Shown here piece by piece: positions 38,459-38,826 of a stretch of 64,000 nucleotides of DNA; position 1 is the first letter of the stretch, and the number at the start of each line of letters is the position of its first letter. The stretch covers positions 273,668,001 through 273,732,000 of the forward strand of contig OZ024741.1 in the NCBI GenBank assembly GCA_964016885.1, read 5' to 3'. Origin of the DNA: Eledone cirrhosa. Lineage: Eukaryota. The position numbers were made by a program, and so were the translations under genes. The notes beneath the pieces were generated by a model that was not told where the DNA came from, ran no database searches, and was given only the letters and a program-made list of their open reading frames with translations.

Positions 38459-38610
38459 GTATCCCGGGTTCAAACGGGGGTAACCACAGTAAGTAAAGTA
38501 CACATACATAGCAGAGTATAAATGTTTAATATAGAAATGACATCTGCAAGACTAGAATTGTTTCATTCGAATGAAACAATTCTAGTCCTGCAGAAGCCAT
38601 TCCTATATAA
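38459..38610. mobile_element. Palindromic footprint, family P4
   Basis: Axis at 38568/38569 (tttcattc|gaatgaaa), i.e. inside HHR stem II; the long arm is on the minus strand; homologous to 41898-42020. Confidence 0.8.
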
Positions 38611-38636
38611 AAAAATATATATATATATATATATAT

Positions 38637-38824
38637 GAACGAGTAGGACCCCGACGGCTGAGCTCAAGCCGTTTCGACGTCTAATATAGTCCAGAATTAG
38701 CCGTCGAAACGGCTTGAGCTCAGCCGTCGGGGTCCTACTCGTTCCTAACACCCACTCTACTACCCTAAGTATTGAGTACTTTGGTGCGTTATGGTCCACC
38801 TGGTTCCTTACCACATTTCCTTCG

Positions 38825-38826
<2 letters not shown>
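38637..38826. mobile_element. Palindromic footprint, family P5
   Basis: 49-bp arms 38637-38685 / 38696-38744, tail 38745-38826 ending in cttcgtta(TA)n. Confidence 0.85.

Follow-up and report, generated by a model that had tools for sequence, protein, structure and literature searches.

Clustered 5' ends of hammerhead-bearing inserts in Eledone cirrhosa DNA: a possible record of RNA start sites in Penelope-like elements

The inverted pLTR inserts of Pen2a_Av and other endonuclease-bearing Penelope-like elements (PLEs) are the closest described relatives of the inserts reported here, and in the accessible text of PMC3846280 and PMC8557442 they resemble ours in their head-to-head arms, one-sided tail and (TA)n target, whereas our tails measure ~30-110 nt. 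Those reports invoke self-priming or endonuclease resolution, and in their accessible parts the 5' ends are not mapped onto the hammerhead or the start site. The Adineta Pen2a pLTR is described with a putative TATA and TCACT pair (PMC3846280), like that of our family P9 (families are numbered P1 to P11). In vitro, according to the accessible part of PMC11167929, the PAc Poseidon element has two internal RT start sites located ~100 nt past the hammerhead; both strands are cut and extended, and unprocessed RNA is the dominant template. All of this resembles the pattern described below, although the same part of that work does not treat genomic 5' end positions or the joining of two cDNAs. The minimal hammerheads of PLEs, in the portion of PMC4209133 available, are like ours in their type I motifs, in scattered single motifs and opposite-strand pairs, and in the dimer-type palindromic stem III of P1, P2, P3, P7, P9 and P10; P4, P5 and P6 differ in having stems III of 4-8 bp that can form in a monomer, and P5 in a hairpin II of ~53 nt that holds promoter-like motifs. 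An RNA start inside the pLTR and upstream of the hammerhead region has been demonstrated for Penelope of D. virilis (PMC2377424, accessible text), and start sites inside pLTRs are also published in the part seen of PMC8557442. The D. virilis promoter is internal and TATA-less, ~120 nt before helix I, with an intron between (PMC2377424); in contrast, the motifs found here are of TATA type and the predicted starts lie at or inside the hammerhead.

The insert layout, tail, target and uncleaved template are therefore already known. In the open-access literature, to which the search extended, we found no paper that maps PLE 5' ends to the hammerhead or start site. L1 twin priming likewise yields non-overlapping inverted arms with a junction near the second priming site, but it uses poly(A) priming, whereas the arms here mostly overlap and have fixed internal start sites.

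The window, meaning the whole analysed stretch of 64,000 nt (GenBank assembly GCA_964016885.1, contig OZ024741.1, positions 273,668,001 to 273,732,000 of the forward strand), is microsatellite-rich animal DNA. It holds numerous short repeats terminating in (TA)n, together with long remnants of Penelope-like type that fall into two kinds. Families were grouped by self-alignment of the window, and arm ends were set from pairwise alignments and called by hand; the hairpin II lengths of P1 and P5 are estimates. A descriptor search for complete hammerheads gave 12 matches in the window, 11 of them within recognised families, with complete motifs in P4, P6, P8, P9 and P10. At the Rfam gathering threshold no hammerhead was returned for the window, the sole match being a 5S rRNA 5' fragment (28139-28205, 44 bits) that adjoins (TA)n and is probably retroposed. 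The short two-armed and solo inserts are hammerhead-bearing repeats, likely of the Penelope type. Their hammerhead lies near the 3' end, in the pLTR (for P5 from its 3' half in the window and its stem II partner in outside loose ends). Their inverted, 5'-truncated arm and one-sided tail come with family-fixed 3' ends of long and short arms in P1-P6, and their flanks in the window are AT-rich or (TA)n, as are the TA-rich loose ends at 38747 and 41935. The P4 motif at 41877-41927 has, from its sequence and predicted fold, the CUGANGA and GAAA cores, three stems and NUH site of a type I hammerhead. No open reading frame is attached to P4 or P5 in the window, and tandem P4 or P5 arrays are absent from it, which sets the inserts apart from non-LTR retrozymes with their tandem hammerhead units.

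The focal stretch, 38457-38826, holds one P4 and one P5 insert:

38457 to 38568, minus strand: P4 long arm with tail; its 5' end is the first base of the stem II 3' strand
38568 to 38569: head-to-head junction TTC/GAA, lacking loop II, with a 2-nt CG overlap
38569 to 38612, plus strand: P4 short arm; 3' strand of stem II 38569-72, GAAA 38573-76, stem III 38576-91, which has decayed here, cleavage predicted after A38592, 3' strand of stem I 38593-98
38613 to 38638: (TA)n stretch separating the two inserts, the likely target
38637 to 38685, minus strand: P5 short arm; 5' end close to the top of the lower stem II 3' strand
38688 to 38826, plus strand: P5 long arm, its first base A38688 being the predicted +1 in an initiator-like context; 3' strand of the lower stem II 38695-705, GAAA 38706-09, stem III of 6 bp 38709-27, cleavage predicted after C38728, 3' strand of stem I 38729-34, site of short-arm ends near 38747, tail as far as 38826

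The axis of the P4 insert (38457-38612) falls between C38568 and G38569, as an earlier sequence-only reading had stated, and alignment to the complete copy at 41877-41927 shows that the 3' strand of stem II begins with G38569. Its junction type (41897/41899, both = 2) recurs in seven contigs of run X1. Within the P5 arm, an alternative 6-bp hairpin around GAAA (38700-38714) is possible and would compete with stem III in an RNA starting at 38688.

The sequence-only reading held that 5' ends recur inside stem II. We mapped the ends of all 40 arms at 26 loci of the window onto the hammerhead (38 located ends, 2 censored), and a uniform distribution is rejected. Expressed as ends per 100 nt traversed, the rate is 0.21 downstream of GAAA (6 ends), a figure lowered by poor detection of old, very short arms, 2.51 in hairpin II (16 of the 38 located ends), 2.60 across the core together with the 5' strand of stem I (6 ends), 0.79 in the next 100 nt upstream (6 ends) and 0.05 farther upstream (4 ends). 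Hairpin II compared with the downstream part plus the first 100 nt upstream gives a binomial p of 3e-7 over the 40 arms; with one arm per locus in 2000 draws the median p is 6e-5 and the worst 0.003, and without P5 it is 4e-4. The hairpin II rate does not exceed that of the core and stem I 5' strand (p 0.64), and the cluster therefore belongs to the 5' half of the hammerhead and not to stem II alone. The clustering is a real signal, which the sequence-only reading had partly mis-assigned to stem II. Its list of examples was also selective: it cited 9 of the 26 loci, and among the 17 others three fit (6118, 4428, 11421) while 14 have no hairpin II end. Those 14 comprise three of the four P4 loci, the read-through P7 copy 26617-26690, the P5 insert 50589-50710 and all P3, P6, P9 and P10 arms.

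The census leaves aside some degenerate features. A tentative P11 palindrome (11810-11885) has its axis in loop III of a degenerate hammerhead, and its sister at 12115-12180 starts at stem I. An old imperfect palindrome (73%) lies at 17606-17727, and ~16880-16930 (minus strand) and 22790-22830 (plus strand) are further degenerate hammerhead-like ends of single-copy repeats. The single-copy degenerate hammerhead at 25580-25700 (plus strand) has a long hairpin II containing TATATAAC at 25621 with TCAAT ~30 nt later, a second promoter-like pair inside a hairpin II.

The following P4 features served for comparison:

41877 to 41927, plus strand: read-through P4 copy with complete type I hammerhead, used as mapping reference; core CTGATGA 41883-89, hairpin II 41890-901, predicted cleavage after A41921
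41847 to 41854, plus strand: TATAAATA, the sole exact TATAWAWR in 41790-41902, 30 nt ahead of the start of stem I
50205 to 50380: P4 two-armed insert, both arms from the stem I 5' strand (~50257), each arm internally deleted
60838 to 60979: P4 two-armed insert, axis 60904 at the start of stem I, with a 10-nt slippage duplication in the right arm

Four P4 arms of the window start at stem I, 30 nt after TATAAATA. The chance of this spacing is 0.0014 for a 6-nt window (113 nt examined), and read depth marks the region upstream of the hammerhead that contains the motif as element sequence. Data from outside the window consist of read-derived junctions for P4 and P5 (runs X1, X5, X7 and X22, RAD reads included). 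For P4 the best 15 of 56 rows were used, 14 of them inverted. Among the junction ends listed, 9 of 28 lie at 41877-86. A second site, 41897-41901, takes 13 of the 25 listed ends in the detectable zone 41877-41915 (p 3e-6) and occurs in 9 of the 14 listed inverted junction types and in 39 of 41 contigs of run X1; stem I and core ends (9 of those 25) are not enriched (p 0.46). Were none of the 41 remaining rows to end at the stem II site, p would be 0.94 by type and 3e-6 weighted by contig, the latter mixing units. Five near-symmetric junction types among those listed, at 41897-41903, all lack loop II, and three of the 14 listed inverted junctions join non-overlapping arms.

Two further lines of P4 evidence were considered and set aside. 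A ten-fold depth drop across the hammerhead, with loose ends at 41898-99, was rejected, since P4 subfamilies differ upstream and in loop II and alignments clip there (the 41899 loose end still has the core). A 3' splice site ahead of stem I was likewise dropped, most reads differing there from the window copy. RAD reads from three runs, with 10-16 read starts apiece, contain a joint 41924 to 41880. It defines tandem P4 units of 77 nt, all carrying a hammerhead, which form a very small array reminiscent of retrozymes.

Besides the focal insert, P5 is represented by these pieces:

40621 to 40821: two-armed insert, both arms from AGTCC with a short T run between
45914 to 46066: long arm ending at 46048, linked via GG to an 18-nt short-arm remnant
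50386 to 50448, minus strand: short arm from AGTCC, with G in front where read-through copies have T
50589 to 50710: two-armed insert and counter-example, both 5' ends downstream of the hammerhead
4428 to 4473, plus strand: diverged short arm starting 3 nt ahead of GAAA

Between the third and fourth of these lie 140 nt of single-copy sequence (50449-50588), possibly captured or target DNA.

The four P5 arms that had been read as starting at about AGTCC do so, at 38688, 40764, 46048 and 50448, and all four begin at the position of A38688. The 5' half of the P5 hammerhead, core included, is absent from the window, and the stem II partner strand was taken from loose ends from two other organisms, which open with the complement of the P5 lower stem. 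They place the AGTCC start in upper hairpin II, 7 nt above the lower stem, and A38688 thus in the upper part of a hairpin of probably ~53 nt. The outside P5 junctions form a complete list of 13 rows, in which all 11 usable upstream ends lie at 38688-38698 (an end at 38680, which sits in non-element flank, is left out of this count). Six of the 12 inverted junctions end at 38688-89, and 7 of the 12 partner ends fall close to where short arms end (near 38747), in the range 38737-38759 (p 0.027). This junction set is biased to non-overlapping arms, because its reference has no sequence upstream and it lists no symmetric junctions, a type common in the window. In run X22, 7232 read ends stack up at 38695; they were discounted as a probable restriction-site effect of the RAD library, and a search of metagenome contigs with the P5 sequence pattern gave no matches.

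An RNA polymerase II promoter has a TATA box ~30 nt before +1 and an initiator at +1, and the RNA is capped from there. With A38688 taken as +1, P5 shows a TTAGTY context in its main type, and a second subfamily whose loop differs (1616 reads in X22, 108 contigs in X1) has it in the same register, with a chance of ~0.01. A one-mismatch TATA, TATTTAAA, starts 29 nt before A38688 in the loose end of one contig each in X7 and X5, that is, in two other organisms; its chance at one mismatch is 0.07 and it is blurred in X1. The box overlaps the 5' strand of stem II, and pairing alone could conserve it.

The other families are represented as follows:

4195 to 5140: P1, related to P9, as a solo copy 4195-4368 (minus strand) and a two-armed insert 4921-5140 with axis 4987
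56757 to 57020: P2 two-armed insert, one end in the core and the other in upper hairpin II; P2 occurs again at 6118-6341
56312 to 56640: P3 two-armed insert, axis 40 nt upstream of stem I
55391 to 56285: P6 copies; arms 55550 and 56017 share their start base, 29 nt upstream of stem I
37640 to 37735, minus strand: P7 arm from the 5' strand of stem II; P7 also has an arm at 39225 (core) and one at 26617-26690 (read-through)
42053 to 45851, plus strand: broken, 5'-truncated Penelope-like copy with P9 hammerhead (core 45752), TATACATA at 45657 and TCACT (+1 A 45688)
12268 to 14312: second P9 copy, TATA at 14114-16 and TCACT (+1 A 14146)
18735 to 22596: P10 Penelope-like insert that retains remnants of RT and GIY-YIG, with an inverted arm of 1180 nt; its two 5' ends lie upstream of the hammerhead by 1-2.5 kb

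The individual ends in the sequence-only reading all proved to be correctly placed here as well. The P1 axis is at C4987, 6 nt ahead of the GAAA at 4993, and the P1 sister copy stops at 4364-4368, probably in the stem II 5' strand; the P2 arms start at 56939 in the TGATGA of the core and at 56940 in upper hairpin II, and the P7 arm starts at 37735. A second P3 copy (26044-26211, 73% identical) starts at the very base of the P3 axis, and the P6 inverted arm starts ~70 nt downstream of the cleavage site. In P9 the TATA and TCACT motifs are kept 30-32 nt apart in two copies of 71% identity. Its coding remnants were recognised by eye, and a Pfam search of three P9 frames and one of the sister copy gave no match; in P10, GIY-YIG scored above the cut-off and RVT_1 (E 3e-4) below it. 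Both P9 copies also show a splice-donor-like AG/GTATGT or GG/GTATGT between predicted start and hammerhead (14177-14186, 45724-45733). The motif TTGAGT(A/G)C(C/T)T occurs in the tails of the unrelated P1, P4 and P5 (38772, 41973, 50329, 5074, 4252) and again at 26333, 41613 and 44843, and is a candidate RT recognition signal.

We propose, at even odds, that the 5' ends pile up by RT run-off at the start of the RNA after two-ended priming, the cDNA ends then being joined head-to-head. Both cut ends of the (TA)n target would prime reverse transcription, which would begin only 40-150 nt downstream of the hammerhead motif, so that the cDNA would often reach the start of the RNA and run off there; joining of the two cDNA ends would be blunt or by micro-homology. 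Promoter-like motifs would set the RNA start, for P5 at A38688 inside hairpin II and for P4 at ~41877, and base-exact recurrence suggests RNA starts for P3 and P6 at their shared arm start bases, 56460 for P3 and 55550 for P6. The proposal builds on the end positions, the two fixed 3' ends of long and short arms, the junctions lacking loop II, the non-overlapping arm pairs and the motifs at the expected spacing. Junctions vary by a base or two, with an overlap of 0-3 nt, and this variation, together with the non-overlapping arms and fixed 3' ends, would fit two cDNAs primed from both target ends, much as PAc behaves in vitro (PMC11167929). Ends that resemble template ends, by recurrence in P3 and P6 and by motifs in P4, P5 and P9, favour run-off for P5, P4 stem I, P3 and P6. 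The promoter spacing holds for P4 (TATA), P5 and P9, the RNA starts themselves being predictions; the promoter idea was formed after the ends were seen. Against run-off counts P1, which ends inside hairpin II although the predicted start of the related P9 lies ~100 nt before GAAA, and no TATA at a fitting spacing was found for P7 or P8. The P4 ends at 41897-41901 are not accounted for by run-off, as they lie 20 nt downstream of the predicted start and share inserts with ends at 41880-83; pausing near the cap-bound end, a cut in loop II and trimming during joining are candidates. Ends that come with no promoter motif (P4 41897-41900; P1, P2, P7 and P8) probably reflect premature stopping or trimming during joining.

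It has also been supposed that the RT stalls while unwinding a folded, uncleaved hammerhead and that the stalled cDNAs are joined later, which we consider rather unlikely. The share of located ends in hairpin II (16/38), the P4 concentration at 41897-41901 and the long hairpins II of P1, P2 and P8, which catch 3/3, 2/3 and 1/2 ends, speak for stalling. Yet the single-stranded core and the stem I 5' strand have an equal end rate, and P4, with the sharpest stop, has the weakest hairpin II (0.0 kcal/mol alone, no stable fold) and ends at the top of the stem II 3' strand instead of at its base. The stronger hairpins II of P3, P6, P9 and P10 (-3.0 to -6.4 kcal/mol) were passed by 9/9 arms, and the far stronger stems III of P5 (6 bp) and P6 (8 bp), both ~-7 kcal/mol, catch no ends. 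Stalling at the ribozyme hairpin, as claimed by the sequence-only reading, is thus possible for P1, P2, P8 and the P4 site and weak as a general rule, hairpin strength being no predictor. Its other suggestion, a cDNA that pairs back on itself through stem II and in this way primes second-strand synthesis, is highly improbable. For palindromes of this kind self-priming is the explanation given in print, there with an antisense template (PMC3846280, accessible text); a 2-bp snap-back is possible at the P1 axis, and the tentative P11 palindrome turns on loop III. But a self-primed product should keep loop II, which is kept in none of the window junctions and in 0 of the 14 listed P4 inverted junctions, self-priming cannot produce non-overlapping arms, and a cDNA that stops at the P4 axis carries no hairpin at its 3' end.

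The ends could instead be post-transcriptional 5' ends of the RNA, left by 5'-to-3' trimming halted at the ribozyme edge or by a nuclease cut in loop II. This would account for two P4 sites (fold edge and loop II) in one family and for base-exact symmetric junctions, but it predicts neither the TATA/initiator spacing nor the P3 and P6 ends 29-40 nt ahead of any hammerhead helix, and we regard it as quite unlikely. Slightly less probable still is that the axes arose later or once, by central deletion of unstable palindromes or by descent from a small set of masters whose 5' end was fixed. Micro-homology at several junctions (CG, GG, GAA), the internal deletions at 50205-50380 and 45914-46066, and the chance that P5, P3 and P6 repeats share masters would agree with such an origin. 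However, five solo copies (4195, 4428, 37640, 39225, 50386) likewise end in hairpin II or core, nine different P4 junction types among those listed share one site, and the signal remains without P5; a fixed master end, moreover, partly equals a fixed RNA start.

Since none of the 38 located ends lies at the predicted cleavage site, the claim that the template hammerhead was uncleaved fits, as already published for PAc (PMC11167929, accessible part). A religated circular RNA, proposed in the portion seen of PMC4209133, would give the same sequence as an uncleaved template. The accompanying explanation, that minimal hammerheads are inactive as monomers, applies to P1, P2, P3, P7, P9 and P10, in which stem III is too short for a monomer and a dimer would be needed, and not to P4, P5 and P6, where a single RNA can form stem III; for P4 41877-41927 the full three-way junction is the predicted minimum-energy fold of the monomer. 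A P5 transcript that began at 38688 would not contain the CUGANGA core, and inactivity of the ribozyme need not be assumed.

Run-off at the RNA start, if taken further, suggests a broader model that we offer tentatively, as possible but not probable. The PLE RT would load ~100-150 nt from the capped start of the RNA and make strong-stop-like cDNAs from both target ends. In families such as P5 the promoter would lie within stem II, and the transcript would start with a half hammerhead that cannot cut itself, while its downstream copy would be whole; transcription start would serve as a switch protecting the template from cleavage, and the start sites of PLEs could be read to the base from genomic stubs.

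The pattern touches on two questions, how the inverted arms of PLEs are formed and what role their hammerhead has. If the stub ends are RNA starts, thousands of genomic copies would be a base-level record of the template, the puzzle of the uncleaved ribozyme would be solved for some families by promoter position, and two-ended priming would replace self-priming. The end pattern makes the integration route of PLEs directly testable.
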